Origin: Candidatus Hermodarchaeota archaeon
GTDB lineage: Archaea > Asgardarchaeota > Lokiarchaeia > Sigyniarchaeales > SOKP01
Assembly (NCBI GenBank): GCA_048885925.1
Contig: JBHLLG010000058.1
Location: forward strand, 1-16,970
Direction of reading: 5' to 3'
DNA length: 16,970 nucleotides
The notes beneath the pieces are model-generated. The model was not told where the DNA came from, did no database searches, and saw only the letters and a program-made list of their open reading frames with translations. The translations under genes and the position numbers were made by a program. This document shows, piece by piece, positions 1 through 16,970 of the stretch (positions are counted from its first letter, which is position 1; every line of letters starts with the position of its first letter).

Positions 1-1031
1 AAATCAGCTATTGTAGAAAAAGCGTAATTTACATTTTCTCCTTTTAGGGCGGAAGTTTCAATATACCCTAAATTTAATTCAGTTGCTAATTTTTGAATCA
101 TATCACTAGTTATTGTTCTTTGTCGTTTTAAATCAGATTTATTTCCGATGATAAATCCTATTAGTTCTTCTGATCGATCTTTTAGTTGATTGATTACATC
201 TGAGTACCATTTTGGGATAGTATTAAAAGTCTCAGTTCTTGTCATATCAAATACTAAGAAAACCGCATCTGACCCACGGTAAAATTGTTGTCTCATTGTC
301 TCGAACTTAACTTGGCCTCCGATGTCCCATAATGTTAATTGTATTACGGAGTCTTCAATTTTGAATATCTTGTCGCTGACCATTACTCCTAAGGTGGGTA
401 CGTAATTTCTTTTAAATGCATTATTAGTGTATCTTAATATTAATGAAGTTTTGCCAACATTTGGATCTCCAACTATGATTATTTTAAATTGGTAATCAAG
501 TAAACTCCGATCTCTTTTAGCTTCTGGGAACTCCTCTATTTGTTGCTGTTGAAATTCCTGCTGTTTTAATTCTTCTAGAAGAGTGGAAATATTGGAATTA
601 AGATTTTGAAGTAGATCAACAAAATCTTCTCTATGTGCTCTTGATTTTTCTAAATTTATGATTTCTTTAGATGTATTATTAAAAGTAATTGATAAATCAT
701 TCATATATTTATAAAATATTACATCATATGCTTCTTCGAATAATAATACAATAGCAGATTGACCAATTTCTCCTCTTCTTGAAGGATCTTTCCATTTAAG
801 ATATTTAATGAGTCCTTTTAAACTCATGGAAGGAAAAGGGAGTATGACTAAAGATTCTGGGATAAGTCCTTGTTCTCCTGTTAAAACAGTTAAAGCTTTT
901 ATACTAATATGAAGCAGATCCATCTGCGAAAATCTAGAAGTAAGCCAAGCTACTGGATTTGGTCCAAGTTCATCACTCATTTCTACATAAACGATCCCTG
1001 AGATTAATTCTTTTTCTATAGAACTCACCAT
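1..1031 (-). CDS. N-terminal longin/uDENN-like domain fused to a Rab/Ras-like small GTPase (3' end truncated by window edge)
   Basis: Not in the ORF track. Hand translation from ATG at 1031 is open to the window edge (343 codons): MVSSIEKELISGIVYVEMSDELGPNPVAW...ILPFPS...WKDPSRRGEIGQSAIVLLF...LKQQEFQQQQIEE...YQFKIIIVGDPNVGKTS (G1), YVPTLG (G2), LWDIGGQ (G3), FYRGSDAVFLVFD, IGNKSD (G4), ETSALKGENV (G5). The GTPase call is firm; the longin-like call for residues ~8-150 is inferred from pattern. Confidence 0.92.
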   Translation of the reverse strand, partial: MVSSIEKELISGIVYVEMSDELGPNPVAWLTSRFSQMDLLHISIKALTVLTGEQGLIPESLVILPFPSMSLKGLIKYLKWKDPSRRGEIGQSAIVLLFEEAYDVIFYKYMNDLSITFNNTSKEIINLEKSRAHREDFVDLLQNLNSNISTLLEELKQQEFQQQQIEEFPEAKRDRSLLDYQFKIIIVGDPNVGKTSLILRYTNNAFKRNYVPTLGVMVSDKIFKIEDSVIQLTLWDIGGQVKFETMRQQFYRGSDAVFLVFDMTRTETFNTIPKWYSDVINQLKDRSEELIGFIIGNKSDLKRQRTITSDMIQKLATELNLGYIETSALKGENVNYAFSTIAD

Positions 1032-1113
1032 TATAAAACTAACAAAAACTTAAAGAGCAAAATTTTAGCTATTATCTAATAATATAATTTTTTTATATTA
1101 AATATTGTTTGTT

Positions 1114-1123
1114 AAAAAAAAAA
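1114..1123 (-). terminator. Possible archaeal oligo(T) terminator after the 7-TM gene
   Basis: T10 run on the minus strand about 15 nt after the stop at 1138. Weak evidence in such AT-rich DNA. Confidence 0.3.
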
Positions 1124-1137
1124 GAGTTAAAAAATTT

Positions 1138-1845
1138 TTATTTTAATCCTACGTACATAAACCAAAAGCTACTTAGATACCCAATTCTAACTAAAATTAC
1201 CATAATTCCTGGAGCAGTTAATCCTTCTAACAAACCAAATATACAAAAACAAATCGACCCTATAGATAGGAAAAAGAAATTCTTACGTATAACTCCTGAG
1301 GATTGAAAGCCTTTATATAAAAACCCAAGACCCAGGAAAATTAAAACTGTTATTAACATAATCCCCATCAAAATTCCGGCAAGAGTCATTAAACTCACAT
1401 TGTAATCAATTAAATTTTCACTAGGCGGTGTTGGTGGTAATGGAACAAAATTAAAAGAACCTCTAGGATCTATAAATATTACTATTTCAAAGAATATGGT
1501 TAGGATCAAAAAAATAATGACAATGTATTTTTTCATTTTGGGTGCTAATAGTTCAGCACCAATATACATAGAGGTTATAATTACAGGAGCAAACCAAATA
1601 TATGACAAAATGCCAACAATCCCATTATTTACAATATTCTCTTGAAGAAATATTACAAATAGAAAATCTGTGAATACTCCTAAAAACATAAGACCTGCAA
1701 GTATATTAGCCAATCCTAAATATGTAAGCAATTCAGCTTGGATTTTTCTCGAATTGTAAATAAAGAATAAGCCAAAGATTATACCAAAAATTACTACACC
1801 TGAAGCTGTGATTCCGTCAATCCAACCATTAATATCTAATGCCAA
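1138..1845 (-). CDS. Seven-transmembrane membrane protein of unknown function (resembles a stand-alone 7TM sensor-like module)
   Basis: 235 aa, TTG start preceded by a GGGGGT purine tract, with an in-frame stop just upstream. Seven hydrophobic segments by eye, basic short loops (SRKIQ, PKMKK, VIRKN) and one Pro-rich loop (VPLPPTPPS). No soluble output domain. Confidence 0.8.
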   Translation of the reverse strand: MALDINGWIDGITASGVVIFGIIFGLFFIYNSRKIQAELLTYLGLANILAGLMFLGVFTDFLFVIFLQENIVNNGIVGILSYIWFAPVIITSMYIGAELLAPKMKKYIVIIFLILTIFFEIVIFIDPRGSFNFVPLPPTPPSENLIDYNVSLMTLAGILMGIMLITVLIFLGLGFLYKGFQSSGVIRKNFFFLSIGSICFCIFGLLEGLTAPGIMVILVRIGYLSSFWFMYVGLK

Positions 1846-1945
1846 GATTAAATTTTACCCCCATTTCTATTTTCATTTATTGGAAGAAAAGTCATTTTTT
1901 TTAAATTATTATATAATCATTTATTCTAATAAATAATAGCTTTAG

Positions 1946-2049
1946 TGGGAAAGGGGGGATTTGAACCCCCGACCATTACCAATTTGCTCCGAATGGAAGC
2001 AAAATCTTGGTCCCGGACCAAGTATCATACCAAACTAGACAACCTTCCC
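1946..2049 (-). tRNA. tRNA-Pro(CGG) with a 30-nt intron at non-canonical position 43/44
   Basis: Reverse complement folds as acceptor GGGAAGG/CTTTCCC + discriminator A, Pro-type D arm GTCTAGTTTGGTATGAT, anticodon stem CTTGG/CCAAG with loop TC-CGG-GA (anticodon at 2015-2013), T arm GGGGG-TTCAAAT-CCCCC. Removing 1976..2005 leaves a standard 5-nt variable loop TGGTC and a 74-nt tRNA. CCA is not encoded. Confidence 0.9.
1976..2005 (-). other. tRNA intron (30 nt) with a relaxed bulge-helix-bulge splice motif
   Basis: Intron ATTTTGCTTCCATTCGGAGCAAATTGGTAA: internal hairpin TTTGCT..AGCAAA, central 4-bp helix ACCA/TGGT and 3-nt bulges AG^A and AA^T. Cleavage after the second bulge base gives exactly these boundaries. 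Confidence 0.75.
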
Positions 2050-2149
2050 TTGATACATGATTTAATCTAAAAATAGTAACTTGGATTTAAAAAAATATTC
2101 TTTTTTTAAGATTTTTAGGGTAAAAAACTATAAATATTATTAACTTTTG

Positions 2150-2425
2150 TTAATCTTTAACTTTCTCTAAGATTGATATAATTCGATAAATAGTTGTGCG
2201 ACTATGAAATGGTACATTTGGATCTTGCGCCACATCTTCCACCATATACATTACATTACTGGCAAGGACTCCTGGAGTTTCATCTTCTCTATGCAATTCA
2301 TTAATGCCTCTTTGAGCAATCCGTTTTATATTTCTGGGAACACTCCTGTCATTTATCATTCCATTCAGAAGATATTCAACATTTTCAAAAGATTTTTTTT
2401 CTTCATCAGTTATAGCTCTTGGCAT
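2150..2425 (-). CDS. UPF0147 family protein (conserved archaeal)
   Basis: Family-typical DRSVPRNIKR and QDPNVPFHSRTTIYRIISILE motifs. ATG at 2425 preferred to the GTG at 2437. Confidence 0.88.
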   Translation of the reverse strand: MPRAITDEEKKSFENVEYLLNGMINDRSVPRNIKRIAQRGINELHREDETPGVLASNVMYMVEDVAQDPNVPFHSRTTIYRIISILEKVKD

Positions 2426-2518
2426 TGAAAATATCACCAGAAAGTATTTTGTAGGGATAAAAAGTATAAGAAGTAAAATAATTTTTAAAATTTAATTTTT
2501 TTGATTTTGAGAAAAGAA

Positions 2519-5431
2519 TTAATATATCCCAAATTCCCGAATTTCTTGTTTAAGCTCTGGAACATTTTCTCCGATCTCTTTAATTCTATTTTGATAATTA
2601 GTGAAAAAATCTTGAAATTGCTCATTTTTTCCTTGATTAATTTTTTTTACAAAATCATAAGACATTTGTTGGATTGTGTCAAATATTTGATTAAAATTTT
2701 CAGTAGAACTTAATAGTTTTTGATTTACTATTTTACCTTGTTTCCTTACCATATTTCGAAGTTTTCCACGAGGAATCCGTATTTTTTCTAATAAATTATC
2801 ACATTCATGGAGAAAATCATAAGATTGGGCTTTATTATTATCATCTAATTTTGCTTCAATTATTTCAGTTCTCCATGTGTTAATTCTTCCGCTTGCAAAG
2901 GTGTCAAAATTTAAGGAAATGGAGTCTATTCCTTCTCGTACTAAAAATCTTAGAAAATCGGGATCATCACTAGGTGCTTGACCACAAATTCCTACTTTTT
3001 TACTAAATTCATGGGCAGTTTTTATTAAGTGGCTAACAGATCTCCTAATTGCTTCACTATTAGTTGTATAAGCATATTCTTTAGCTATCGGAAGTAGTCT
3101 TGCTTCATCCCTGTCAACTCCAAATGTCAATTGAGTCAAGTCATTCGAACCTATTGAAAATCCATCAAAATATTTACAAAATGTATCTGCACAAATAATA
3201 TTTGAAGGAATTTCAGCCATTACATAGACTTTTAAATCATCTTCTCCGCGAATTAGTCCTTCACTCTCCATAATTTGTATTATTTCTCTCCCCTCTTCTG
3301 GAGAACGACAGAAGGGAACCATTGGGACAATATTTTTTAATCCCCAATCACGAGCTTTTTTAATTGCTCTTAATTCTAACATAAATGCATTTTGAAAGTC
3401 ATTAGAAACATATCGAGAAGCTCCTCGGAATCCCATCATTGGATTGTGTTCTTCTTCTTCATAAATCCATCCTCCAATTAAATTAGCATATTCATTAGTC
3501 TTAAAATCTGACAATCTTACTACACATTCAGCAATAATCCCATCTTTTAATTCTTTCCATACCCCCGCTGCGATAGTTGCTATCCCTTCTGCTAATTTCT
3601 CAATATAGAATTGCTCTTTATTATCATAACCTATAGTTAAAATTCTAATTTTGTCAAGAGTTTTTTTTAATTTTAAAATTTGTTGATTAAATGGATCTTT
3701 ATGGTAGAGATCACTTTTTTTGATATTTTCTATCCTTTTCCGTTGTTCTAATAAGATATCATATCTCATAATCAAAGCTTCAAAATCTATTAGAGCATTA
3801 GGATGAATCTGGATCTCGTCATTTATAATAAACTCTAATCTTGCTAGACCCGTTCCATCAGGATATTTTCCTGAAGATAAAGCTCCTTTAGGAATTCCTA
3901 AATTCACTAATACTTTTGTTCTTGTCGATGGCAATTTTGCGAATTCAATCGTATCAAAATCATATTCTACATCTTTTAACCATATTCTTGGCTCACCTTC
4001 ACTACAATCAATAGTAACATATTCAATCCCATCACGTTGTTTTTCTTTCATTGCTTGAATAATATTATCAGCTCCAACAATAGAAGCTATATTCAATTCT
4101 CTTGATACAATCGCAGCATGACAAGTAGGACCTCCTCTTTCTGTAATTACACCACCTAAGTTTTGCATATACGAAGTCCAATCTGGATTAGTCTCTTCAG
4201 TTATCAGAATATCTCCTTCCCTGAGTAAATGAGCATCGTTTATATTTTCTATTATTTTAATTTTTCCATATCCAATTCTACGTCCAATAGCTATCCCTGA
4301 ATTTTCAATTAATATCCCCTCTTTAACTAAGCTGTTTGGATCTTCAAGAAGGTAAAAAATTTCTTCGACATCACCCTTGATACTATGCACTGTTTCAGGA
4401 CGAGCTTGTACGATATATACTTTTCCGTCGTTACTAACTGCCCACTCAATATCCATCCTCCGCCCATAATGTTCGCGAATTTTTTGGGCATAATTAGCTA
4501 ATGTTATAACTTCATCATCAGACAAACAATACTTCATTTGGTGATCTAGAGGTACATGAACTACCTCAGTTCCAATCTTACCAGTTCCTTTTAAAAATAC
4601 CATCATCTTCTCTTTTTTAACTAATTCACGACGAATAATCCTAAGTCCTCTTGGATCATGCTTAAATACAAGAAATTCATCTCCTTTTTCTACTCCTTGG
4701 ACAATTAATTCTCCAAGACCCCATGTACCCCTAATAGCTACAACATTCAAATTTCCACTATCGGGATCTTCAGTAAACATAACACCAGAAGATTTAACAC
4801 CTCCAAGTCCACCTGCCATTTCTTGCACTCCTACACTAAGTTTTACGGCAAAGTGATCAAAACCTGCTCGTTCTCTATACATCGTTGCTCGTGTTGTAAA
4901 TACTGATGCCATATCTTTCAAGATATATTCCAATATTTGCTTTTCTCCCGCTATATTCAGGTGAGTATCTTGTTGGCCTGCAAAAGAGGCATCAGGTAGA
5001 TCCTCTGCTGTAGCAGAGCTTCTGACTGCGAAGGTGGTTTCTTCACCAATTTTTTCTAATAACTTATTATATGCATCTAATATCTCATCAGCAAGAGAAT
5101 CAGGAATTTTTGCTTGTTCAATAATATAACGGATGTTTGCACAGATTTTATCAACTTTCTCAACAGCTTTAATATCCTCGGATTTTAACTCATTAGATAT
5201 TCTTTTAATGTCTTGAGCAATTAATTCTCTAAGTGATATTTCTTTTTCCTTAATGGTAAAGTAATTTGTGTCTAAAATGTAATCAAATGCGTTTGCAGTT
5301 ACAGCAAAACCAAGAGGAACAACTATTCCAAAGCTTAATAGCTCTCCTAAAGAAGCATTCTTACCTCCAACGAGAGCTAAATCATTAACTCTCAAATCTT
5401 CAAAGAACTTGATATATCTATATTCATTCAT
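2519..5431 (-). CDS. ppsA: Phosphoenolpyruvate synthase (pyruvate, water dikinase) with extra helical insertion and C-terminal extension
   Basis: VGGKNASLGEL, AVRSSATAEDLPDASFAGQQDT, DIEWA, IVQARPETVHS, phospho-His motif GGPTCHAAIVSRE, GLARLEFII, NPMMGFRGASRY, FSIGSNDLTQL, GICGQAPSD. Confidence 0.97.
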   Translation of the reverse strand: MNEYRYIKFFEDLRVNDLALVGGKNASLGELLSFGIVVPLGFAVTANAFDYILDTNYFTIKEKEISLRELIAQDIKRISNELKSEDIKAVEKVDKICANIRYIIEQAKIPDSLADEILDAYNKLLEKIGEETTFAVRSSATAEDLPDASFAGQQDTHLNIAGEKQILEYILKDMASVFTTRATMYRERAGFDHFAVKLSVGVQEMAGGLGGVKSSGVMFTEDPDSGNLNVVAIRGTWGLGELIVQGVEKGDEFLVFKHDPRGLRIIRRELVKKEKMMVFLKGTGKIGTEVVHVPLDHQMKYCLSDDEVITLANYAQKIREHYGRRMDIEWAVSNDGKVYIVQARPETVHSIKGDVEEIFYLLEDPNSLVKEGILIENSGIAIGRRIGYGKIKIIENINDAHLLREGDILITEETNPDWTSYMQNLGGVITERGGPTCHAAIVSRELNIASIVGADNIIQAMKEKQRDGIEYVTIDCSEGEPRIWLKDVEYDFDTIEFAKLPSTRTKVLVNLGIPKGALSSGKYPDGTGLARLEFIINDEIQIHPNALIDFEALIMRYDILLEQRKRIENIKKSDLYHKDPFNQQILKLKKTLDKIRILTIGYDNKEQFYIEKLAEGIATIAAGVWKELKDGIIAECVVRLSDFKTNEYANLIGGWIYEEEEHNPMMGFRGASRYVSNDFQNAFMLELRAIKKARDWGLKNIVPMVPFCRSPEEGREIIQIMESEGLIRGEDDLKVYVMAEIPSNIICADTFCKYFDGFSIGSNDLTQLTFGVDRDEARLLPIAKEYAYTTNSEAIRRSVSHLIKTAHEFSKKVGICGQAPSDDPDFLRFLVREGIDSISLNFDTFASGRINTWRTEIIEAKLDDNNKAQSYDFLHECDNLLEKIRIPRGKLRNMVRKQGKIVNQKLLSSTENFNQIFDTIQQMSYDFVKKINQGKNEQFQDFFTNYQNRIKEIGENVPELKQEIREFGIY

Positions 5432-5543
5432 TTTAAAGTGAAACGGTTAAACGTAAATTATACTTAGAATTTTTCTAAATAATAATTATTATTCTTCTGA
5501 TTATAAATTAAACGTTAATAAAAAAAGTAACCCCATCCTTTAA

Positions 5544-6071
5544 TTAATTTAACTCGTTATCGAAAACAGCATAATCAGAAGTCGTAAATAGACAAAAAAT
5601 TACTTTTTTAATTTGGGTGTCCCCTTGTAAGTATTCTTTTGTTGTATTAATCATTATTTTAGCACAGCGATCAATGGGATATCCAAAAATTCCTGTTGAT
5701 ATAGCTGGAAATGCGATAGATTTAAGCTTTTTTTCATCCATTATTTTTAAACTATTAAGTGTTGCATTCCTTAGTTTGTTATCTTCATTTCCTTCTCCCA
5801 TTCTTGGACCTACTGCATGAATTACATATTTAGCTTTAAGATTTCCTCCAGTTGTTATAACAGCACCTCCAACAAAAGTACCTCCTATTTTATTACATTC
5901 TTCTTGAATTTTTTGACCTCCTTTTTTTCTGATAGCACCAGCCACACCCCCTCCTAATATGAGTTGAGCATTAGCAGCATTTACAATAACATCTGTGTCT
6001 AATTCCGTTATATCTCCTTGAACTAATTTAATTATTGATTCTTTTATCTTCAGTTCTTTCATTTTTAACAT
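5544..6071 (-). CDS. Macrodomain protein (MacroD/YmdB/AF1521-like ADP-ribose binding or hydrolase)
   Basis: QGDIT, DVIVNAAN, GGGVAGAI, VIHAVGP, SIAFPAISTGIFGYP. Confidence 0.95.
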   Translation of the reverse strand: MLKMKELKIKESIIKLVQGDITELDTDVIVNAANAQLILGGGVAGAIRKKGGQKIQEECNKIGGTFVGGAVITTGGNLKAKYVIHAVGPRMGEGNEDNKLRNATLNSLKIMDEKKLKSIAFPAISTGIFGYPIDRCAKIMINTTKEYLQGDTQIKKVIFCLFTTSDYAVFDNELN

Positions 6072-6121
6072 CTACTCAAAAGTTTTATTAATAAAAGTTA
6101 AAAAAGAAAAATTAGCTAAAT

Positions 6122-6841
6122 TTATTCTTCAACACGGCTCTTTTTAAAAATTTCATTTAATTTTTCGCGATCTTCTTCACTCATTTTACTCATAGCTTCC
6201 ATGTTTTGCCTCATTAAATCCATCATAATTTTCTGAGAAATCATTTGATTTAATACAGGTAAGGCAATCCTCATTCGAGTTAGTTCATAGTGCATTGTCT
6301 TTGCAGTTTCTCGCATCTCTTTCAAATCTTCCTTCGTCATTCCTTCTTCACCTATACCAGGGCAATCCGCATCAACAACGATAAAATTCTTTCCATCGAA
6401 TTCTAAAGGATATGTACGACAACTTAATGGACGGTTATCATATACCAAACATTTCTTATCATCTTTATTATAGAGCGGACATTTTACATCAAGTAATTCT
6501 TCGATAGGGACACTTACAAAAGGATCTTTTGGAGTTTTTTCTTCTCCTTCTTTTTCTTCTTTGGGAGGTGGTGCTAATGGTTTTAAGATGAGATCAATAC
6601 CTCCATCAGGTTTGTTATATATATCTAAATAGGGCATAAAGTTAGCGATAACTCCACTTCTTGCCCACATCTCTAAATCCCAAAAAGTTATAGGGATTGG
6701 ACCTCTTTTAGCACAGCAATTGTCGCAACGTGTACATTTAAATGAAAATTTTGCCTTTGATTTTTCTTCTGATGTTTCCTTTTCTTCTTTTTCAATATCT
6801 TGAGTATTGGGACTTTGATTCTCTTCACTATCTTCTGGCAT
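6122..6841 (-). CDS. YkgJ/UPF0153 family CxxCxxCC cysteine-cluster protein
   Basis: FKCTRCDNCC, CPLY...CLVYDNRPLSCRTYP and a final CPG. Acidic N-terminus and Met-rich helical C-terminus. Confidence 0.9.
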   Translation of the reverse strand: MPEDSEENQSPNTQDIEKEEKETSEEKSKAKFSFKCTRCDNCCAKRGPIPITFWDLEMWARSGVIANFMPYLDIYNKPDGGIDLILKPLAPPPKEEKEGEEKTPKDPFVSVPIEELLDVKCPLYNKDDKKCLVYDNRPLSCRTYPLEFDGKNFIVVDADCPGIGEEGMTKEDLKEMRETAKTMHYELTRMRIALPVLNQMISQKIMMDLMRQNMEAMSKMSEEDREKLNEIFKKSRVEE

Positions 6842-6960
6842 GATAAGGTTCTCTTTATTTAAATATTTTAAATATTATTATATTTGATTGTTATTAGAAA
6901 GAAGAATATAACCTAGAAAAAAAATTTTATTTTTGTTTAAAATAAATTAATATGAAATTT

Positions 6961-7560
6961 TTAAGATATTATAAACAAGTCATTATTATTTAACAACCAA
7001 CCAAGAGTTTTTAGTGCTGGTTCTATTAATTTTTCTTCTCTGATTCCAGTAAGTACTATTTTACCATTACTAAATATTAGAAAAACAGATTTAATTGGAT
7101 TATTTAATTTAAATGTTAATCCAGGAAAAACTTCTGGCTCAAAAATCGTATTTTCAAGTACAGTTGCAGCTAAATCTAAATTAATTTTTCTGAAAAAATC
7201 TGCGGTTATAACTATATTTACTATTTCTGGAATTATTAAACTTGTATTTATATAAATTCCACAATTTTCATGTAATTTCATAGATAATCTCATTAAACTT
7301 AAATTCACATGCTCAAATGATTTTAATCCAGTCATTATAATTTTACTATTTCTAAAAATGATAAATACGCATTTTGGATGCTTAAATCTTATAAAAAGCC
7401 CTGGAAAACGTTCTGGGTTATATTCTGTATCTATTAATTTATCACGTATTTTATTTAAATCAAGCTTTCCTTCGATATTTAAAGAGGTTTTTACAACGAT
7501 ATTCTCAATAGTATATGTTAAACTTTTAATTTCATCTTTTGATTTTATATCAAGATCCAT
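6961..7560 (-). CDS. tbp: TATA-box binding protein (probably a divergent paralogue)
   Basis: Two TBP repeats: IENIVV...YNPERFPGL...IFRNSKIIMTG and IVNIVI...FEPEVFPGL...LIFSNGKIVLTG. Confidence 0.93.
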   Translation of the reverse strand: MDLDIKSKDEIKSLTYTIENIVVKTSLNIEGKLDLNKIRDKLIDTEYNPERFPGLFIRFKHPKCVFIIFRNSKIIMTGLKSFEHVNLSLMRLSMKLHENCGIYINTSLIIPEIVNIVITADFFRKINLDLAATVLENTIFEPEVFPGLTFKLNNPIKSVFLIFSNGKIVLTGIREEKLIEPALKTLGWLLNNNDLFIIS

Positions 7561-7869: not shown

Positions 7870-8103
7870 ATGAAACAACTTACTTTGAAAAAACTATATA
7901 TCTGGTTAATGCTTACTCTTAATTTATTATTTGCTTTTGTAATTGGGTTTACAATTCCTTTACTCCAATCTGATAGTTATTACAATTTAGGGTATGTAAT
8001 GATTCCATTATTAGTAATTCTTAATTATATAATCTTAGATAGGTTTCATTATTATCTACGGCATTCAAATGAACTTGAGAGGAATGAAAATGCAGATATT
8101 TAG
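7870..8103 (+). CDS. Small two-TM membrane protein
   Basis: 77 aa, ATG start, two hydrophobic segments and a charged tail. Overlaps the start of the archaeosortase gene. Confidence 0.7.
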   Translation: MKQLTLKKLYIWLMLTLNLLFAFVIGFTIPLLQSDSYYNLGYVMIPLLVILNYIILDRFHYYLRHSNELERNENADI

Positions 8104-8980: not shown

Positions 8981-9038
8981 AATAGAAATATCATTTAATT
9001 TTTAATTAAATATTTTAAAAAATTAAAATTGATGAAAT

Positions 9039-9941
9039 ATGTTAAATTTTGAAACTGAGCAAAAAATATTACAAATTGGTAATGTTAGATTAGGTGGTCA
9101 ACCTGGAGAAAATCCAATTGTAATGATTGGAACTGTATTTTATGCAAGACATTCAGCTTTACTCGATGAAAAAACAGGTAGAATTGATAAAAATATTGTT
9201 GAACAAGAATTAAACGAATTTTCTTCTCTTATTGAGGAGTCTAAATTACAAGGGATAATTGATGTTGTTGGTGCATATCCAGAAGCACTAATTAAGGAAT
9301 GTGAATTTATTGCTGAGAATGTAGACTTTCCTTTTCTAGTGGATGGGTTAAACGACTCTTCTCGTATACCCGCTATGAAGGGATTAGGCGAAATTGGATT
9401 ATTAGATAGAGCTATCTTAAATAGTATTGATGAGAATACAAATGATGAAAATCTAGAAGTATTGAAAGAAATCGGAGTTAAAAATGCTGTTTTATTAACA
9501 TTTGGAAATAGATATATATTTCCGAAGCAAAAAGTTAAATTCTTAAAAGATACGCTGATTCCAAGAGCTGAACAAGCAGGAATTGATAATAAAATTGTTG
9601 ATACTGCTGTTTTGGATTTACCCTCGATTGCTATTAATTTTGAAACTGTAAGATTGGTAAAGAATGAATTAGGATTACCAACAGGATTTGCTCCTGCTAA
9701 TGCAATTTATGCGTGGAATTTTGTGAAAAGGTATGGGGAAAATCCTCGTTGTGGAGCCATTGCTTCAATTATGACTTACTGTGCTTCTGCACCGAGTGAT
9801 TTTATTTTATTTGGTCCACTAAAATTTGCAAAATGCGTGATACCGTCCATTGCACTAATTTCTGGAGTTAACTCCTACTACAGAAAAAGAGTATTAAGAA
9901 AAGAAATATTTGAACAATCACCTTTAAATGTAATTTTTTAA
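9039..9941 (+). CDS. mtrH: MtrH-family methyltransferase (tetrahydromethanopterin S-methyltransferase subunit H / MtgA-like), stand-alone
   Basis: Family-typical N-terminus FETEQKILQIGNVRLGGQPGENPIVMIGTVFY, plus PFLVD, ILNSI, IVDTAV, GFAPANA and DFILFGP. Confidence 0.9.
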   Translation: MLNFETEQKILQIGNVRLGGQPGENPIVMIGTVFYARHSALLDEKTGRIDKNIVEQELNEFSSLIEESKLQGIIDVVGAYPEALIKECEFIAENVDFPFLVDGLNDSSRIPAMKGLGEIGLLDRAILNSIDENTNDENLEVLKEIGVKNAVLLTFGNRYIFPKQKVKFLKDTLIPRAEQAGIDNKIVDTAVLDLPSIAINFETVRLVKNELGLPTGFAPANAIYAWNFVKRYGENPRCGAIASIMTYCASAPSDFILFGPLKFAKCVIPSIALISGVNSYYRKRVLRKEIFEQSPLNVIF

Positions 9942-11440
9942 GCTATATACCTTAAAAGCAAATCTTTTGTATAATTTAAGAAGGATGATAATTCAATATT
10001 AATAATCTCTTTTTTATTCTCATCATCTATCAAAAATAATAGAAACATATTATTTTCTTCAATTTGAATTCTTTTAAAAAGAATGATTGAATTAGAGACT
10101 TTAAATATTGCTTCCTCTTTTTGTAGTGCCTTAAATTTGGCAAAAATATTAAATAACATTGCAAATTGAGGTGCAGAGACTTCAAAAACATTCAAAATTT
10201 CTGATTTTGGAATTTTAATCAATTGGATTGTCTGATCATTATAAAAATTTGCTAATACTAATCCATCAGTAGATAATAATAAAGTGAGATTAACTTTTGT
10301 TATTAGAGAAAAATTTCTAAGGTTATGATTTATAATTTCTCTATTTGGGCTTAATTTCGAGATTCCTGAGGAAAAAGCTCTTAAAATTGTAAATACTTGA
10401 AAAATACTTGTTAAATATGTCTCAGGAGGACCATCTGGAGTAATTTTATTCAATCTTTTTTTAATAGATTCAATATTTTCTTTAATTTCAATTGAATTTA
10501 AAACGTCCAAATCTGCTTTTGATAAAATGTATATTATTGGAGTGTTTTGATTAAAATCTTTTAGAATTTTTTTAATATTTAAGAGATATTCTATACTTTC
10601 TTCAAATCTGTTTTTATTTTTAATATCGATAAAAAAGAACATCAAATCAGCTTCATACAAATAAATCTCAGCTTTGCTGATATATTTTTCCCGAAATTTT
10701 CGTTGGCCTCCTAAATCCCATAAAAATATAGTAGCACCTAATGCTTCAATAGATGTGATGCTTGCACCTGTTGTTGGCTTTAAACCTATCAATTTGCTAT
10801 ATTGTTTATCAATACTTAATAGGAAACTTGTTTTACCCGAATCATCAAGACCAGAAAAAAGTATTTTTAATTTTCTGTGTGAAGTTATTGGTGTAGAGGG
10901 GCTTTTTTCTATTTCAAATAAGTTAAATAGAAGATTATGGAAATATTGTTCAAGATCTTCGAACGGGGGGTAACTTTCATTTAATAAATTATCAAGTTCA
11001 TTGAAAAAGCTTATAATTAAAGGCTTTAATCTATTTATATTATTATATAAAAAGCTTCGGCTTTTTTCCTCAACTAAAATAGAAAATGCAGTTGGAATAG
11101 GATTATTTGATGAATCTGTCCTAATAAAATGAAAATAAGTAAGCGAAGTTGTCTTAAAATCAGGATAAGGTAATATTGCAAAATATTGGATATTTTCAAG
11201 GTTTTTTTCTTCGCTAACTATCTTATCGCTGATAAACAAACTCAGATTTTTTATAGAAATCTGAGTTACATCCCTATAAGTTAATGTCAGAAGTTTTCTT
11301 TCTTCTCTCTCTTTATGGATTTCACTAAATACTTTGTCACTAACATAATTTGGGAACATATAAATAGGTTGAGGACCCATTTCACCATAAACACTGAAGA
11401 CATAACCTTTTACAATCGAATTTTCAATAAGTTCTTCCAT
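9938..11440 (-). CDS. Three-domain protein: longin/uDENN-like domain, Arf/Rag-like small GTPase, roadblock-like C-terminal domain
   Basis: G1 GLDDSGKT, G2 KPTTG, G3 WDLGGQ, G4 SKAD, G5 TSIF. N-terminal GYVFSVYGEMGPQP..ISIK..ILPYP matches the N-terminus of the 1..1031 protein. C-terminal LLLSTDGLVLA is roadblock-like. Confidence 0.88.
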   Translation of the reverse strand: MEELIENSIVKGYVFSVYGEMGPQPIYMFPNYVSDKVFSEIHKEREERKLLTLTYRDVTQISIKNLSLFISDKIVSEEKNLENIQYFAILPYPDFKTTSLTYFHFIRTDSSNNPIPTAFSILVEEKSRSFLYNNINRLKPLIISFFNELDNLLNESYPPFEDLEQYFHNLLFNLFEIEKSPSTPITSHRKLKILFSGLDDSGKTSFLLSIDKQYSKLIGLKPTTGASITSIEALGATIFLWDLGGQRKFREKYISKAEIYLYEADLMFFFIDIKNKNRFEESIEYLLNIKKILKDFNQNTPIIYILSKADLDVLNSIEIKENIESIKKRLNKITPDGPPETYLTSIFQVFTILRAFSSGISKLSPNREIINHNLRNFSLITKVNLTLLLSTDGLVLANFYNDQTIQLIKIPKSEILNVFEVSAPQFAMLFNIFAKFKALQKEEAIFKVSNSIILFKRIQIEENNMFLLFLIDDENKKEIINIELSSFLNYTKDLLLRYIA

Positions 11441-11526
11441 GGTTTTAAAATAAATACAAGTAATTTTTTAATTTCTTAAATTAATGTAAGCAAATTTTAT
11501 TATTAATAGCTTTATATTTAAATTAG

Positions 11527-12489
11527 ATGTTTCTCAAAAAAATTGCTGAGACTATTACTAGTAATAAAGATATTATTGAAAAGAAAGATATTAGTCCAAT
11601 AATCGAATTCATCGATAAGAACTCTTTTAAAAGTCAAAAAATTTTCTCTGATATAGGAGAAGATTCAGCAGCGATAACAAATAAAGATAACTTTATCCTA
11701 ATTACTACAGACAGAATTAAAACTAGTTTTGTTGAGAATTTTCCTTATGGAGCGGGTTTTAGTGCAATAGTAGTTGGAGTAGATGATATTTATTGCTGTG
11801 GTGGATTTCCTTTAGCAGCAAGTTTAATTATATCATATAAAGAAGATGTAATTGGAAAGCAAATCATAGATGGTGTTTGTGAAGGTTCTAGGAAGTTTAA
11901 TGTACCGATCGTACGAGGTCATACAAACCCTAGAGGGGATTATTATGAATTAAGTTCTACTATGATTGGAGAAATTAACAGAGATCACTATATTTCGGCA
12001 AAAAATGCACAAGTTAATGACAATATAATTTTAGCTGTAGATTTTGATGGAAAAGTTGGAAAAGCAAGTAATTTATATTGGGATACTGTAACTTTTAAAA
12101 CTTCAAAAGAGGTTTTGAATAAAAGGAAATCGATGAATGAAATTGCTAAATTGCAAATAGCTAATTCTTCTAAAGATATATCTAATGGAGGTATATTTGG
12201 CACCATATTACAATTAATTAAATTCTCTGAAGTAGGAGCAGATATTAATATTAATCAAATTAGTATTCCTCCTAGATTAATTGAAAAAGACTATTCACTA
12301 GATACTTATATTAAAATGTATTTAACCACCTCCTACATTTTAACAGTCCCTAAAAAAAATAGTAAGATGGTATTAGAAATATTTAGTAAATTCGGATTAG
12401 ATGCAAAGATTATAGGGATAATTATAAAAGAAAAAAATCTCCTAAAGGTAAATGATGGGAAGAAATCCATTGATGTATTACGATTTTAA
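11527..12489 (+). CDS. AIR synthase (PurM-like) superfamily protein, selenophosphate-synthetase-related / methanogenesis marker 2-like
   Basis: IGEDSA, ITTD, GVDDIYCCGGFP, VPIVRGHT, SKDISNGGIFG. The exact subfamily cannot be resolved by eye. Confidence 0.8.
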   Translation: MFLKKIAETITSNKDIIEKKDISPIIEFIDKNSFKSQKIFSDIGEDSAAITNKDNFILITTDRIKTSFVENFPYGAGFSAIVVGVDDIYCCGGFPLAASLIISYKEDVIGKQIIDGVCEGSRKFNVPIVRGHTNPRGDYYELSSTMIGEINRDHYISAKNAQVNDNIILAVDFDGKVGKASNLYWDTVTFKTSKEVLNKRKSMNEIAKLQIANSSKDISNGGIFGTILQLIKFSEVGADININQISIPPRLIEKDYSLDTYIKMYLTTSYILTVPKKNSKMVLEIFSKFGLDAKIIGIIIKEKNLLKVNDGKKSIDVLRF

Positions 12490-12581
12490 ATTCAATTTAA
12501 AGTTAAAATTGCTTGATTTATAAATGTTAATTTATAAAATACAAGAAATAAAAAATTAAAAACTTAAATTAAATATTTAAA

Positions 12582-13232
12582 TTAGTTAAGGGGTGAATGG
12601 CAAGATGAACATATTGTTTGACCACCACTATTTAATTTTCCGCACATTGGACAAATAATTCTTCTTGTTTTTATTTCAGATTCCATAGCTTCTTTTTCTG
12701 CTAGAAATTGTAATAATTTCTTATCTGCTTCCTTCATTTCTCTTTCTTTAGCTTCTTTTTCCGCTCTTTTTTTAGCTTCTTGTTCAGCTTTTTCTCTAGC
12801 TTCCCTTTCTGCTTTTTCTCTGGCTTCTCTCTCCGCTTTTTCTTTAGCTTCTCTTTCCGCTTTTTCTTTAGCTTCTTTTTCCGCTCTTTTTTTAGCTTCT
12901 TGTTCAGCTTTTTCTCTAGCTTTCCTTTCTGCTTTTTCTCTGGCTTCTCTCTCCGCTTTTTCTTTAGCTTCCCTTTCTGCTTGCTTTTTAGCTGTTTTTT
13001 CCTCCTTTTCTAATTCTTTTCTTTCTTTTCTATCTTCTAATTTGAGTTTTGCTTTCTCTTTGCTTTCACCAACTTTTTCTTTTACTTTTGAAGCAAAGCT
13101 ACCTAAAGTTTTTTTACTACTACTCAGTTTATCTTTCAATTTTGATTTAAAAGCGCTTTCTGTCTTTTCTTCTAATTCTTTAATAGATTCTGAATCATTA
13201 TTTGATTCATTTTTATCTTGAGATTCGTTCAT
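12582..13232 (-). CDS. Charged helical repeat protein with a C-terminal C4 zinc finger
   Basis: Probable start is ATG 13232 (MNESQD); the ORF-track extension to 13385 reads as AT-rich intergenic sequence. About 100 aa of E/K/R/A repeats, then IICPMCGKLNSGGQTICSSCHSPL. Confidence 0.85.
   Translation of the reverse strand: MNESQDKNESNNDSESIKELEEKTESAFKSKLKDKLSSSKKTLGSFASKVKEKVGESKEKAKLKLEDRKERKELEKEEKTAKKQAEREAKEKAEREAREKAERKAREKAEQEAKKRAEKEAKEKAEREAKEKAEREAREKAEREAREKAEQEAKKRAEKEAKEREMKEADKKLLQFLAEKEAMESEIKTRRIICPMCGKLNSGGQTICSSCHSPLN
12743..12980. repeat. Intragenic tandem repeat: 24-nt units nested in a 120-bp-period duplication
   Basis: 12743-12860 and 12863-12980 are near-identical (about 3 mismatches by eye). 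Each is built of 24-nt units encoding KAEREA(R/K)E-type octapeptides. Confidence 0.92.
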
Positions 13233-13407
13233 TTGGATGTTCACTTTAAATTCAATCTTATTAAATATGATTAATCTTACTAACTTTATTTTATTTTTTT
13301 TCTTATAAGTATTTTTTATTAAGAAATAATAATAATAATTTAACAAATTTCGGTATTTTTTATAATTTTGATTTAATAAGATCATTGAAATTTAAGGTAT
13401 TTTAGAG

Positions 13408-13947
13408 ATGATTAATATGGACTTGGATTTTAAAAAAAACTGCAAAGGAGTTATTTCTGTAATTGGTGCTAGTGAGATTGATAAAGAGACGAAAGAAATA
13501 ACTATTGAAATTGGAAGATTACTAGCAAAAAATAATTTAGCTATAGCATGTGGTGGACTTTCGGGTGTAATGGAAGCTGTGTGTAAAGGAGCAAAGCAAG
13601 AAGGAGGCTTTACTATTGGAATAATTCCATTTGTTGAAAAATCAGCCGCCAACAAGTATATAGATTTAGTAATTCCATGTCCATTTTCTCAAGCAAGAAA
13701 TATAGTTGTTGTATTAGCTGGAGATATATGTTTAGCTATAGCTGGTAAAGCAGGCACCTTATCTGAAATTTCTTTTGCTTGGATCTATGAAAAGCCTATC
13801 ATTGCATTGACAAATGTTAATGGTTGGTCTTCAAAAATAGCTAATCAAAAACTTGACGATCGAAGAAATGACATAATTTATGGAGTGAAAACGCCTCAAG
13901 AGGTAATTAACAAAATAAACGACTTACTCAAAATCAAGAATTCTTAA
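13408..13947 (+). CDS. LOG/SLOG family nucleotide-binding protein (TIGR00725-like)
   Basis: ISVIGAS, ACGGLSGVMEAVCKGAK..GGFTIGIIP, ARNIVVV, GKAGTLSEI. Confidence 0.92.
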   Translation: MINMDLDFKKNCKGVISVIGASEIDKETKEITIEIGRLLAKNNLAIACGGLSGVMEAVCKGAKQEGGFTIGIIPFVEKSAANKYIDLVIPCPFSQARNIVVVLAGDICLAIAGKAGTLSEISFAWIYEKPIIALTNVNGWSSKIANQKLDDRRNDIIYGVKTPQEVINKINDLLKIKNS

Positions 13948-14008
13948 GAACATTTATAAAATTTTAAATAATATTTATATACCATATTTAAAAAAGAGGA
14001 ATTAAAGC

Positions 14009-14710
14009 ATGGATAAACAACCAATAGAAGATATGGAAGTTTTTTTGAAACCAACAAAATTTTGTGATTGTAACAATCGGGAAATAATTAATAAGGTGAA
14101 ATAACTTACTAAAAAAGATAAAACTCCAAAAGAGATGGTATTAAGTATTTTTAATTTTGTAAGAGATAAGATAACTTTCACGATGTGTGAGAATGATAGA
14201 GCATTTCAAACTCTTGAAAAAAGATATGGTGATTGCGATATCAAAACAAATCTTCAAGTTGCATTATTGCGTGCAATCAATATTCCAGTTAGATATTACA
14301 TTGCGTCTTTACGTAAAGAATGACTTAAAGGTATAATTTTAGAATCATTTTACGAGTTGGGATCAGTTGTAATACCACATCATCCTTGGTGTGAATGCTA
14401 TCTTTCTGAGAAACGGATCGCTTGTGACACTCTATTAGATAAAGAATTAGCTGAAAATATTAATAGGAAAGGTATTCATACAAAGGACGATATTCCAACA
14501 ATAGATTGGGATGGTAAACATGATTTAAACACCATGAAAAAATGGATAATAGAGGATAAAGGAACTCTTGCTTCTATCGATAAATTATTTCCTGAAGCTC
14601 AAAAGTGGTTAGATGATATACCAATTGAAAAGGATCAATTGGAGATACTAATTAATCAGTCAAATAAATATACTGAAAATTTAAGAAAATTAAAATCTAC
14701 CAATTGTTAA
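14009..14710 (+). pseudogene. Transglutaminase-like (Cys-His-Asp) gene interrupted by two in-frame stops
   Basis: One frame from ATG 14009 (GAGG upstream): MDKQPIEDMEVFLKPTKFCDCNNREII..K*(TAA 14102-14104)LT..IFNFVRDKI..GDCDIKTNLQVALLRAINIPVRY..RKE*(TGA 14321-14323)LKGII..HPWCECYL..IACD..TAA 14710. The ORF-track pieces 14135..14323 and 14357..14710 are fragments of this gene. Confidence 0.85.
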
Positions 14711-14995
14711 GCAAAAACTCGACTATAAACAGCAATATGTAATTGATAAAGTGAAAACTGTCTAAGGAGTAATAAAAAAAATAAAGGAACTACCAAAAAA
14801 AATGAAAATAGGTAAAAAATAAGCTGTAATAATGGGTCTTAAATGTCCTATAATCTCAACAAGATGAAGGTTTCTTTGAGTTTTAGATAGACAATCTTAA
14901 ATTTTAATTTTTAGTCTAATTTATCTTTACAAAATTATTTGTTATGCAAAAGCTAAATAAAGAATGATATAATTTTTTATCTTATTAAGAATATA

Positions 14996-15031
14996 TTTAT
15001 ATAAAATTTACTTCTATCAATTTTTAGGTGA
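14996..15031 (+). promoter_or_regulatory. Candidate TATA box (TTTATATA) and SD-like AGGTGA upstream of the Rag-like GTPase
   Basis: TTTATATA at 14996-15003; AGGTGA at 15026-15031, 7 nt before the TTG start. Low specificity in AT-rich DNA. Confidence 0.4.
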
Positions 15032-15038
15032 AATTTAA

Positions 15039-16007
15039 TTGGAAAAAGATCTAAAGCAGTCTATTCTATATCTTAAAAAAGAACCACCGAAAGAAGTTGC
15101 GGTTTCAAAGATTTTATTCACAGGATTGGACAATGCCGGTAAAACAAGCATTATTATGTCACTACAGAGAGAATTTTCTAAAATTGCGATTTTATCTCCT
15201 ACTCGAGGTGCACAGAAGCGAATATTTGAATTTTTGGGCAAGGAAATAAGTGAATGGGATCTTGGAGGTCAATTAAGTTATAGAATTGCCTATTTGAAAA
15301 ATCCAGGTAAATATTTTGAAGGAACAGAAGTAGCAATTTATGTTATTGATGTTCAAAACAAACCTAGAATTCCTGAAGCAATAAGTTATTTCAAGGATGT
15401 AATAGAACAGTTCAAGAAGTTAGAGATTGAACCTCCAATTTATGTATTTTTACATAAATATGATCCAGCTCTAAGAAGAAGCGCTCAAAATGAATTGAAA
15501 GCCTTCGTAATAGATCTAAAAGATAAATTAAGAGCGACTGAATATAAAGAATTGTTTTATTATGAAACGTCTATTTATGATTTTTCTTCTCTCATAACAG
15601 CTATGTCTGAAATTCTCTTAAGTCTTTATCCTAAATCAGAGTTGATAGAAAAGACGATTATAGAGTTTGCAAAGAAAGTTAATTCTGAAGGAGTCGTAGT
15701 AATTGATGACAATTCGCTAATAATTGGCTCTTATTATAAAGATGATGAAACTAGGCACCTTCTGACTGCCAGCATGCCTTACTTTTTAACTCTTCATGAT
15801 CACATGCAATTCACAGGTGTAATGGAAGAGAAATATGAGGATAAGATGATTGTTCAAAAATTCGGAAAGAACTTCATATTTAAACAAATAATGCTCAAAA
15901 AGGATGCAGTACCTTATTATTTATTACTACTTAAGGAAGAGCCAGTGTTTCGAAAAGAAGATCTTGAATCTTTTGCAAATTTGTTAAGAGAAATTCTCTA
16001 TAAGTAA
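15039..16007 (+). CDS. Rag/Gtr-like (Arf-related) small GTPase with C-terminal roadblock domain
   Basis: G1 GLDNAGKT, G2 SPTRG, G3 WDLGGQ, G4 LHKYD, G5 ETSIYD, followed by ~125 aa with a roadblock pattern (IEFAKKVNSEGVVVIDDNSLIIGS). HKxD, TSIYD and a C-terminal roadblock are hallmarks of Rag GTPases. Confidence 0.9.
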   Translation: MEKDLKQSILYLKKEPPKEVAVSKILFTGLDNAGKTSIIMSLQREFSKIAILSPTRGAQKRIFEFLGKEISEWDLGGQLSYRIAYLKNPGKYFEGTEVAIYVIDVQNKPRIPEAISYFKDVIEQFKKLEIEPPIYVFLHKYDPALRRSAQNELKAFVIDLKDKLRATEYKELFYYETSIYDFSSLITAMSEILLSLYPKSELIEKTIIEFAKKVNSEGVVVIDDNSLIIGSYYKDDETRHLLTASMPYFLTLHDHMQFTGVMEEKYEDKMIVQKFGKNFIFKQIMLKKDAVPYYLLLLKEEPVFRKEDLESFANLLREILYK

Positions 16008-16194
16008 ACAATTTCGAGTAATTTTAATTGGGTTTTAAAAATATTATACCTTTCTTTTATTAGTACCAACATTAATAAAAATAGATTTTTATTTATATTG
16101 TATACAAAAAGAACTAAAAATTTATCTTTAAATCAAAATATCCTATTAAATTTATTAGCTGAAAGATTTACGATTTAAAAATATAAAAAAAATT

Positions 16195-16970
16195 ATGATT
16201 ATATGCAGTAATTGTGGTGCAACTAATAATGAAACCACGACTCATATTTGTAGAAAGTGTGGGGCTTTACTACCTTTACCATCTAAAACTACACGAATAA
16301 GAAGTTCGAGAGTCGGTAAAGAAAAGAAGAAAAAGCAGAGTTCAATAGAAGAGCCAGTTAAACCTTCTCCTGATAAGCAACAAAAAGAAAGGAAAGAACT
16401 AGAATTACAGGAGATTCCAAAAGATACAGAATTAAAAAATGGGGTTAAGTTACATAAAATTCCCGATCCCTCAACTGGAGATGTTGTTGGAGAACCTTCT
16501 AAAAATGCGAATGAGGTACAAAAAAAAAGAAGGTTAGAAGTTCTTCAAGAGATCACACCTCAACCATATCAAGGTTCTAGAGTCTTTCCCTCTCCACCTC
16601 CCAGAACGAATATTGCTATTAAAGATGCTTTAAGTGAACTTAAAAGTTCGATATCTAACGATCTAGCTAAAAAGCAAGAAATTTCATCAGTATCAATTAC
16701 AGCAGAAGTTCAAAAAAGTGATAGTTCAAGGGCAAAGCAGGAAAGATTAGAAAAAGATATGACAGAAGTACTTAGTTTTCTTTCAAAAAAAATATCTGTA
16801 AAAAAATTAGAAATTCCAAAAGCTAAAACTGTACAAAAAAAAGAACCAAAAGAAACAATTCCTCCCTCCAGTATAAATGAAATTTTGAAACGTTTACTCA
16901 CATTAGACTTAAATATTGAAGCATCAGCTATTATAAAAACAGATGGTACCATTTTGGCATCAGCAATATC
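16195..16970 (+). CDS. Zinc-ribbon, long low-complexity linker and roadblock/LC7 domain protein (3' end truncated by window edge)
   Basis: Not in the ORF track. Open from ATG 16195 to the edge (258 codons): MIICSNCGATNNETTTHICRKCGALLP, a K/E/P/S-rich linker, then SINEILKRLLTLDLNIEASAIIKTDGTILASAI, a typical roadblock alpha1-beta1-beta2 start. Confidence 0.88.
   Translation, partial: MIICSNCGATNNETTTHICRKCGALLPLPSKTTRIRSSRVGKEKKKKQSSIEEPVKPSPDKQQKERKELELQEIPKDTELKNGVKLHKIPDPSTGDVVGEPSKNANEVQKKRRLEVLQEITPQPYQGSRVFPSPPPRTNIAIKDALSELKSSISNDLAKKQEISSVSITAEVQKSDSSRAKQERLEKDMTEVLSFLSKKISVKKLEIPKAKTVQKKEPKETIPPSSINEILKRLLTLDLNIEASAIIKTDGTILASAI

Follow-up and report, generated by a model that had tools for sequence, protein, structure and literature searches.

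How eukaryotic Rag-Ragulator and longin GTPase-activating protein (GAP) nutrient signalling arose, and which partners the many Asgard GTPases have, are questions on which archaeal genomes may bear. A 16,970-nucleotide stretch of a Candidatus Hermodarchaeota archaeon genome (hereafter the window) brings both matters together within 17 kb, as it encodes three multidomain small GTPases, here called A, J and P, and one roadblock protein, Q, all from families typical of Asgard archaea. Do these four proteins form one switch network, or are they neighbours for other reasons? We consider it probable that the window is a conserved Lokiarchaeial (Promethearchaeia) chromosomal block, with A, J, P and Q interspersed among housekeeping genes, and that P works with Q. 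P and Q are the sole pair among the four genes that always stays together. P-Q and, more speculatively, J together with R, a paralogue found beyond Q in relatives, are the only candidate functional partners.

Window genes were lettered A to Q by position. A first-pass annotation of the sequence had described four domain architectures, and these held up in the open reading frames, Pfam matches, structural models, Foldseek searches and profile comparisons. The four genes and their parts are as follows.

3-1031 (-): gene A, longin + Ras/Rab-like GTPase, open at the window start
507-1031 (-): longin domain of A, N-terminal, residues 1-175, GAP-type
3-506 (-): Ras/Rab-like GTPase domain of A, its last ~4-8 residues lost at the window start
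9938-11440 (-): gene J, longin + Rag/Arf-like GTPase + roadblock, 500 amino acids (aa)
10886-11440 (-): longin domain of J
10346-10885 (-): Rag/Arf-like GTPase domain of J
9941-10345 (-): roadblock C-domain of J
15039-16007 (+): gene P, Rag-like GTPase + roadblock, 322 aa, TTG start
15039-15623 (+): Rag-like GTPase domain of P
15624-16004 (+): roadblock C-domain of P
16008-16194 (+): spacer between P and Q, 187 bp, AT-rich
16195-16968 (+): gene Q, zinc ribbon + disordered arm + start of a roadblock domain, open at the window end
16195-16278 (+): zinc ribbon of Q, with weak Pfam zinc-ribbon matches under the cutoff
after the zinc ribbon (+): basic disordered arm of Q, in which short motifs and a helix are conserved
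from about 16867 (+): start of the Q roadblock domain, the rest lying beyond the window

The P-Q gene pair

Relatives were collected in a scan with one genome per species, which returned 212 stretches encoding a relative of J, and the analysis went on with the best 80 of these loci. All are from Promethearchaeota, extend at most 10 kb to each side of J and carry J orthologues 49-74% identical to that of the window, whose own genome is absent from the set. All window proteins were searched against the 80 loci by tblastn. Q lies directly after P on the same strand in every locus where both were found (48/48), with a spacer of 84-295 bp in 47 of them and 1975 bp in the remaining one (L016). Eight further loci have P without Q, and each of these ends no more than 731 bp past P. 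Unlike the P-Q spacing, the distances from P to gene M and from M to gene K, which lie between P and J, vary by kilobases through insertions.

The GTPase domain of P matches Pfam Gtr1_RagA (E 1.9e-26, residues 24-236, 93.4 bits against a cutoff of 22) and also Pfam Arf, over the cutoff but lower (E 8.7e-18). P aligns with PDB chain 8yl2_A, LokiRagO, at E 1.8e-87 over residues 4-319 of 322, and its fold was assigned from this close solved relative because the alignment runs nearly full length. The PDB entry, a structure with GTP, is titled 'Homo Tetrameric RagA-like small GTPase from Asgard Lokiarchaeota (LokiRagO)'; our literature search found no paper on PDB 8YL2, 8ZLA, 9M28 or 'LokiRag'. Solved relatives are likewise available for the fold of Q (9JUE/7YH1) and for the longin domain (8YQG). 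The H-K-x-D form of the G4 motif is a Rag signature. In P the motifs G1, G3 and G4 (H139-K140-x-D142) are invariant in 57 of 57 sequences; G4 reads H-K-F-D in R and S-K-x-D in J, where S307 is present in 29 of 31 orthologues together with K308 and D310. In both J (by model topology and Foldseek) and P (by the 8yl2 alignment) a roadblock domain directly follows the G domain, as in Rag/Gtr proteins. Tandem duplicates of P occur in two divergent loci (L070:1066-3086 and L074:431-2538), the copies being 49-65% identical to the P of the window, and these may correspond to the 'pair of Rag-like genes in an operon' that Tran 2024 reports for the Lokiarchaeon Candidatus Prometheoarchaeum syntrophicum MK-D1.

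The part of Q within the window comprises 258 residues, including only about the first 33 of the roadblock domain, whereas full-length orthologues have 309-364 aa. The fold was therefore read from an orthologue in locus L035 (L035:5909-6961). Its model is mostly disordered across residues 34-221, with helices at 141-155 and, conserved among orthologues, at 176-199 and a predicted local distance difference test (pLDDT) score below 50 at 34-61, 63-103, 118-138, 159-174 and 204-221, and it has roadblock topology at residues 227-347. The top Foldseek match was MK-D1 Roadblock3 (9jue; E 1.9e-8, template modelling (TM) score 0.80), and further matches included the Thor roadblock 7f8m, LAMTOR2/p14 and MglB, with TM scores of 0.74-0.81 across roadblock proteins. 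The LAMTOR2/p14 chains 5x6v_B, 1veu_B and 5yk3_l gave E 2-3e-7 and TM 0.74, and archaeal roadblocks match better. A profile of Q searched against PDB sequences gave non-significant roadblock matches only (7f8m_A E 0.072, 7yh1_D E 1.3); designed repeat proteins among its matches were discarded as spurious. Members of the family carry the public names 'roadblock/LC7 domain-containing protein' and 'predicted regulator of Ras-like GTPase activity'.

An alignment of 30 Q orthologues has short motifs kept in the arm, a repeated L-x-E-I-P-like motif and P-x-P-[FY]-x-G, and a conserved amphipathic helix that precedes the roadblock domain. The arm motifs are possible docking sites for partner proteins. 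Eight orthologues (L016, L018, L019, L022, L025, L027, L031 and L032) are without ATG, GTG or TTG at the aligned start position, and in L018, the one whose frame was read, Ile codons seem to open the protein; such cases could reflect an uncommon start codon or another start farther upstream. Gene L of the window encodes a Lys/Glu/Ala/Arg-rich repeat protein whose terminal zinc ribbon resembles the N-terminal one of Q.

We propose that P would act as a Rag-like switch, forming oligomers by way of its roadblock C-domain in the manner of LokiRagO, and that it would work with Q, whose MglB/LAMTOR2-like roadblock may form a dimeric platform regulating or scaffolding P. The zinc ribbon and basic arm of Q could then tether this platform to another surface. 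A complex prediction for the L035 P orthologue (324 aa) and residues 100-351 of the L035 Q orthologue, made with a 30-row alignment per protein and without controls, scored 0.00 against a mark of 0.32, and its outcome was counted neither for nor against binding.

Longin domains and the paralogue R

Gene A had been annotated as a longin-Rab protein. Its longin domain and Ras-superfamily G domain stand, with a match of the latter to Pfam Ras (E 3.8e-45, 153.8 bits, residues 183-342) and best PDB matches to Rab1/Ypt1 (E ~3e-32), also Rab8 and Sec4. On sequence grounds, however, 'Ras/Rab-like' is a better label than Rab. Orthologues of A are 344-351 aa long, and none of the 25 complete ones has a Cys in its last 10 residues (the window copy, row 26 of the alignment, is without its true C-terminus), so that the prenylation cysteines of Rab GTPases are missing from complete A orthologues. 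In Vargova et al. (preprint 10.1101/2024.02.28.582541), no sequence from Asgard archaea groups as the specific sister of eukaryotic Rabs, and the term RasL is used. We prefer the broader label because C-terminal cysteines are lacking and because true Rabs were not recovered from Asgard archaea in that source.

The GTPase domain of J also matches Pfam Gtr1_RagA (E 2.2e-20, residues 192-398, 73.5 bits against a cutoff of 22) and, over the cutoff but lower, Arf (E 3.8e-17). The family is of near-constant length, about 500 aa, and the best 120 of 351 matches are 57-100% identical. An AlphaFold2 model built from 31 orthologues has a mean pLDDT of 68.4, the P-loop region of its G domain being poorly modelled. 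Residues 1-180 have 10-residue block means of 72-91, except block 71-80 (53), and the strand-strand-helix-strand-strand-strand-helix-helix topology of a longin domain; residues 367-499 have the helix-strand-strand-helix-strand-strand-strand-helix topology of a roadblock domain. LokiRagO (8yl2) ranks first in a Foldseek search of the model against PDB (E 2.6e-13), followed by RagA/C and Gtr1/2, and these alignments span 250-330 columns covering G domain and C-domain. The J sequence matches 8yl2 as well (E 2.8e-28). The longin part matches 8yqg_B, the longin of a Lokiarchaeal roadblock-longin protein, with a Foldseek E of 3.0e-7 and a TM score of 0.68 on the target. J and the convergent MtrH-family gene I share 4 nt at the 3' end of J, and J and K are divergent neighbours in 75 of 75 assessable loci, with a median gap of 95 bp (11441-11526 in the window).

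The segments flanking the GTPases gave no Pfam match to a longin or roadblock family, even at E<=10, and the longin and roadblock calls therefore rest on profile and fold evidence. A profile built from the N-domains of 12 J, 11 A and 10 R sequences (33 in all) matches 8yqg_A at E 1e-7 (8-162 / 6-155). In hhalign comparisons of N-domains A and J gave 96.2%, A and R 99.1%, and J and R 99.4%; for C-domains the values were 99.2% for J and R, 96.9% for P and R, and 7.1% for J and P directly. Judged by these profiles, the longin domains of A and J are homologous, as are the roadblock C-domains of J and P, linked through R. The domain sharing in pairs that the first-pass annotation proposed is thus borne out for A with J and for J with P, whereas the roadblock of Q is related to the Rag C-domains at fold level only.

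R is a second longin-Rag-roadblock gene of 459-487 aa, 31-34% identical to J over the full length. Its GTPase matches Pfam Gtr1_RagA (E 4.6e-26, 92.1 bits). Among the 45 loci with a full 10-kb flank, 25 have R no more than 10 kb from J, with 5-8 genes between. Where R is visible (27 loci), the order is R, an NrdD-like gene (15/27), a NERD-like gene (27/27), Q and P, and we infer that R and the NrdD-like and NERD-like genes follow the end of this window too. There are weak direct leads to longins of the Folliculin/SMCR8 type. The N-domain of R has a weak Pfam Folliculin match (E 8.5e-4), and a search of the ESM Atlas with the N-domain of A gave only unnamed Promethearchaeota clusters, one of which, scored 0.89, is tagged NPR2; with NPR2 in 19% of its members this cluster is a lead, not evidence.

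The catalytic arginines of eukaryotic longin GAPs are FLCN R164, NPRL2 R78 and SMCR8 R147. According to the main-text sections of PMC12290439, GAP-type longins (FLCN, NPRL2 and SMCR8; also C9orf72) have a GP motif that closes the loop before the second strand, the catalytic subunit adds an arginine finger, and a class of Asgard longins has both. Longins of this type are needed for the analogy with FLCN/GATOR drawn in the first-pass annotation, and the GP motif is indeed invariant or nearly so: G23 in 26/26 and P24 in 23/26 orthologues of A, G22 and P23 in 31/31 of J (at the start of strand 22-29 in the model), and G38 and P39 in 22/22 of R. In the loop between strands 4 and 5, Arg-Gly is present in all orthologues of A (R86-G87, 26/26) and R (R108-G109, 22/22), and J is without an invariant Arg there (R107 in 11/31). 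The GAP-type longin of A, with its invariant Arg-Gly loop, could stimulate GTP hydrolysis within its own chain or between the two longins of a dimer. Lacking the invariant loop Arg, J probably depends on a partner that has one, for which R would be the best candidate.

This split extends beyond the 80 loci. J was searched against 1.84 billion representative proteins, with 1555 matches at E<=1e-3. A tree was then built from 25 clusters (440-600 aa) taken from the best 150 matches together with five of the 31 J and six of the 22 R sequences (FastTree, LG+gamma, midpoint-rooted). The longin-Rag-roadblock proteins fall into two deep clades, R-type and J-type. An [AV]-R-G loop is found in 14 of 14 R-type rows and in 0 of 21 J-type rows, and the GP motif in 34 of 35 rows of both clades; one further row, P0379, was unaligned. 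In the J-type the Arg-Gly loop was apparently lost or never present. Origin of J and R by recent tandem duplication was ruled out, because they belong to different deep clades with many 50%-identity clusters between. One J-type and one R-type representative lie on a single 51,416-bp contig of a divergent metagenome-assembled genome (MAG), their protein accessions, MHA1730945.1 and MHA1730949.1, being four apart; a second look-up found no other such pair.

A conserved chromosomal block and the alternatives

In most of the 80 loci the genes follow the order Q-P-M-(L)-K-J-I-H-G-F-E-D-C-B-A. For linkage counts, loci with a flank reaching far enough were taken as assessable. A is kept near J in 28 of 44 assessable loci, P in 53 of 59 and Q in 46 of 56. 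The other genes of the window, with the same counts, are listed below.

1138-1845 (-): gene B, membrane protein; near J in 20/46
2150-2437 (-): gene C, UPF0147, 95 aa; near J in 35/50
2519-5431 (-): gene D, phosphoenolpyruvate (PEP) synthase, NCBIfam 868 bits against a cutoff of 598; near J in 37/51
5544-6071 (-): gene E, macro domain; near J in 46/58
6122-6841 (-): gene F, CxxCxxCC protein; near J in 54/62
6961-7560 (-): gene G, TBP; near J in 33/64
8069-8980 (+): gene H, archaeosortase H, 311.7 bits against a cutoff of 200; near J in 66/68
9039-9941 (+): gene I, MtrH-family methyltransferase; present in 67/80 loci (tblastn)
11527-12489 (+): gene K, AIR-synthase-related protein, best NCBIfam match 'methanogenesis marker 2', under the cutoff; near J in 75/75
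12582-13385 (-): gene L, charged coiled coil + C-terminal zinc ribbon; near J in 13/71
13408-13947 (+): gene M, SLOG/TIGR00725 protein; near J in 64/68

The window has 15 open reading frames of at least 100 aa in addition to the 95-aa UPF0147 gene, and a G+C content of 28-31% in most 1-kb windows (range 22-36%). Between M and P, a single transglutaminase-core-like frame at 14010-14710 (+) (Pfam Transglut_core E 3.7e-9 on 14135-14323) carries two in-frame stops, TAA at 14102-14104 and TGA at 14321-14323. It had no tblastn matches over the whole length of the 80 related loci and looks like a pseudogene specific to this genome. Recoding was ruled out because the two stop codons differ. Locus L035 has an intact 417-aa transglutaminase-like gene beyond R. 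A tRNA at 1946-2049 (-) was found by Rfam (45.2 bits against a gathering score of 29) and missed by ARAGORN; roughly 31 nt are inserted past its anticodon stem, and the anticodon assignment is of low confidence. Among the relatives, MAGs labelled Thor-, Hod- or Odinarchaeota (L001, L002, L026, L027, L037, L039, L057 and L073) carry J orthologues 58-73% identical and the gene order seen in Promethearchaeota. The phylum labels of these eight MAGs may be unreliable.

Is the clustering of GTPases itself unusual? The MK-D1 genome is 4.43 Mb in size. This figure and the MK-D1 counts in the main-text sections of Tran 2024 (PMC10933270), 74 small GTPases of which 26 are fused to roadblock or longin, served as a stand-in for the genome of the window. 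With these numbers, three GTPases of any kind in 17 kb (probability 3e-3) are expected in 0.8 windows per genome, which is unremarkable; three fused GTPases (probability 1.5e-4) are expected in 0.04 windows per genome, which is suggestive of something beyond chance.

The first-pass annotation had proposed a possible proto Rag-Ragulator-FLCN/GATOR network of all four proteins, held together by roadblock-roadblock and longin-longin dimers. The homologous shared domains, the GAP-type longin motifs, a co-location kept in many loci and the low expectation for three fused GTPases all point that way, and linkage is conserved across the 80 loci, so that the objection of absent linkage does not apply. 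As evidence for a module, however, this linkage fails, as PEP synthase, macro-domain and SLOG genes lying about as far from J are kept with it at least as well as the GTPase genes (P 53/59 against SLOG 64/68; A 28/44 against UPF0147 35/50 and PEP synthase 37/51). The linkage of A and P matches that of housekeeping genes and therefore reflects general block synteny and nothing specific to function. As the annotation itself had noted, the four genes are not one operon; they are dispersed over both strands between unrelated housekeeping genes, and P and Q are absent from a flank of at least 8 kb in L061, L078, L056 and L062. No LAMTOR1-type scaffold and no TOR-like output kinase was identified for the Ragulator-like part. 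Partner specificity is unreadable from domains because each genome has tens of paralogous roadblock and longin proteins. We thus regard a single four-protein network as distinctly unlikely and an unsafe basis for further work. The interpretation in the first-pass annotation is partly supported, in that the parts list is real and the Rag-Ragulator analogy is reasonable at the domain level.

At the other extreme, the four genes might be independent of one another, P and Q included, and simply travel together in GTPase-rich genomes within a slowly rearranging block. In favour of this, synteny covers the entire block with its housekeeping genes, a cluster of three GTPases of any type is nearly expected per genome (0.8 windows), and co-evolution does not stand out; against this, P and Q remain adjacent in 48 of 48 loci while the P-M and M-K distances shift by kilobases, and Q is in the fold class of known GTPase regulators. 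We judge such full independence to be rather improbable. Another arrangement would pair J with R, and not with A, P or Q, as a Rag-like heterodimer joined at both roadblock and longin domains, R giving the arginine finger. It draws on the two deep clades with their [AV]-R-G split (14/14 against 0/21) and shared GP motif (34/35), on R lying at most 10 kb from J in 25 of 45 full-flank loci, and on the two types sharing the 51,416-bp contig. Homodimers do equally well, however, as 8YL2 is by its title a homotetramer and Tran 2024 modelled homodimers, and 5-8 genes separate R from J, which leaves the pairing of J with R a doubtful candidate.

Several observations weigh against a conserved block in which P works with Q, or against parts of the mechanism given above. 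According to Tran 2024 (PMC10933270), the GTPase genes of MK-D1 do not as a rule share operons with genes for roadblock or longin proteins, and genome layout gives few clues to GTPase partners. The P-Q spacer of 84-295 bp is long for a tight operon. The roadblock of Q has no profile-level relation to the Rag C-domains (hhalign <1%), and Arg86 of A is only a putative positional counterpart of the eukaryotic arginine fingers. Mirror-tree style partial correlations were calculated for 66 family pairs, controlled for K, I, H and M, with pairs involving R (<8 genomes) dropped. They were 0.38 for P-Q, 0.50 for J-P and 0.55 for J-Q, and there is no specific co-evolution signal because unrelated pairs score as high or higher (H-P 0.69, A-I 0.65, H-J 0.62). 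The conserved block with a working P-Q pair remains the reading that we favour, with some confidence.

A wider proposal can be made for the longin-Rag-roadblock proteins, at low probability. Those of Lokiarchaeia would be of two anciently diverged kinds, with one of each in the same conserved neighbourhood, and J and R would form a heterodimer joined at both ends that would prefigure both the pairing of RagA/B with RagC/D and the Arg/no-Arg asymmetry seen in FLCN-FNIP, NPRL2-NPRL3 and SMCR8-C9orf72; P-Q would add a Rag with a free-roadblock platform similar to Rag-Ragulator. A heterodimer is considered because the Arg split mirrors the eukaryotic longin GAP heterodimers and the two-paralogue Rags, and such a complex would amount to a prokaryotic counterpart of the Rag A/C pair that carries an asymmetric longin GAP of its own. 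The P-Q adjacency, the conserved neighbourhood and the Arg split appear undescribed in the literature listings and named sections that were searched. The analysis offers two testable candidate partnerships, namely the invariant P-Q pair and the Arg-bearing and Arg-less clades.

Comparison with known systems

The protein architectures themselves are familiar. The main-text sections of Tran 2024 (PMC10933270) already describe longin-GTPase, GTPase-roadblock and longin-GTPase-roadblock proteins in MK-D1, report roadblock and longin proteins as abundant, and present homodimers modelled through roadblock domains. MK-D1 GTPases share with those of the window the same three architectures, the Rag/Arf-like and Rab-like classes and the absence of C-terminal prenylation cysteines; in difference to that report, P and Q here always adjoin each other, in a region whose synteny extends over many genomes. 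With LokiRagO (8YL2; compare LokiRagM, 8ZLA/9M28) P shares the G motifs and the C-domain, and J matches it by sequence and fold. P and LokiRagO come from different source genomes.

Eukaryotic Rag/Gtr proteins are obligate heterodimers of two paralogues joined through their C-domains. In Ragulator, LAMTOR1, an extended subunit anchored in the membrane, wraps around two dimers of roadblock subunits and provides the dock for the C-domains of the Rags. The window shares with this system a Rag G domain with a roadblock C-domain (J and P) and a free roadblock of LAMTOR2 fold (Q). In contrast to Rag-Ragulator, no LAMTOR1-like lipidated wrapper and no TOR kinase was identified in it, and the solved relative of P is by its PDB title a homotetramer. 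With the longin GAPs of FLCN-FNIP and GATOR1 the longins of A, J and R share the GP motif, and those of A and R have a conserved Arg, the putative counterpart of the finger; unlike in those complexes, the longin is here fused to the GTPase on which it might act. The GP motif and, in A and R, a conserved Arg are likewise features of the Asgard 'Folliculin/SMCR8-type' longins (Traffic 2025, PMC12290439). In the main-text sections of that study these are described as longin domain-containing, with the client GTPase left open, whereas here the longin is fused to a Ras- or Rag-like GTPase.

The bacterial MglA-MglB system offers a parallel in gene layout. There, as here, a GTPase gene (P) adjoins the gene of a full-length roadblock protein (Q) with the fold of the MglB GAP dimer. 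P differs from MglA in being Rag-like by Pfam (Gtr1_RagA, Arf) and by its best structure, 8yl2, and in having a roadblock domain of its own, and Q differs from MglB in its zinc ribbon and its disordered arm of about 200 residues. By analogy, the P-Q pair recalls MglA-MglB in its layout and Rag-Ragulator in its components.

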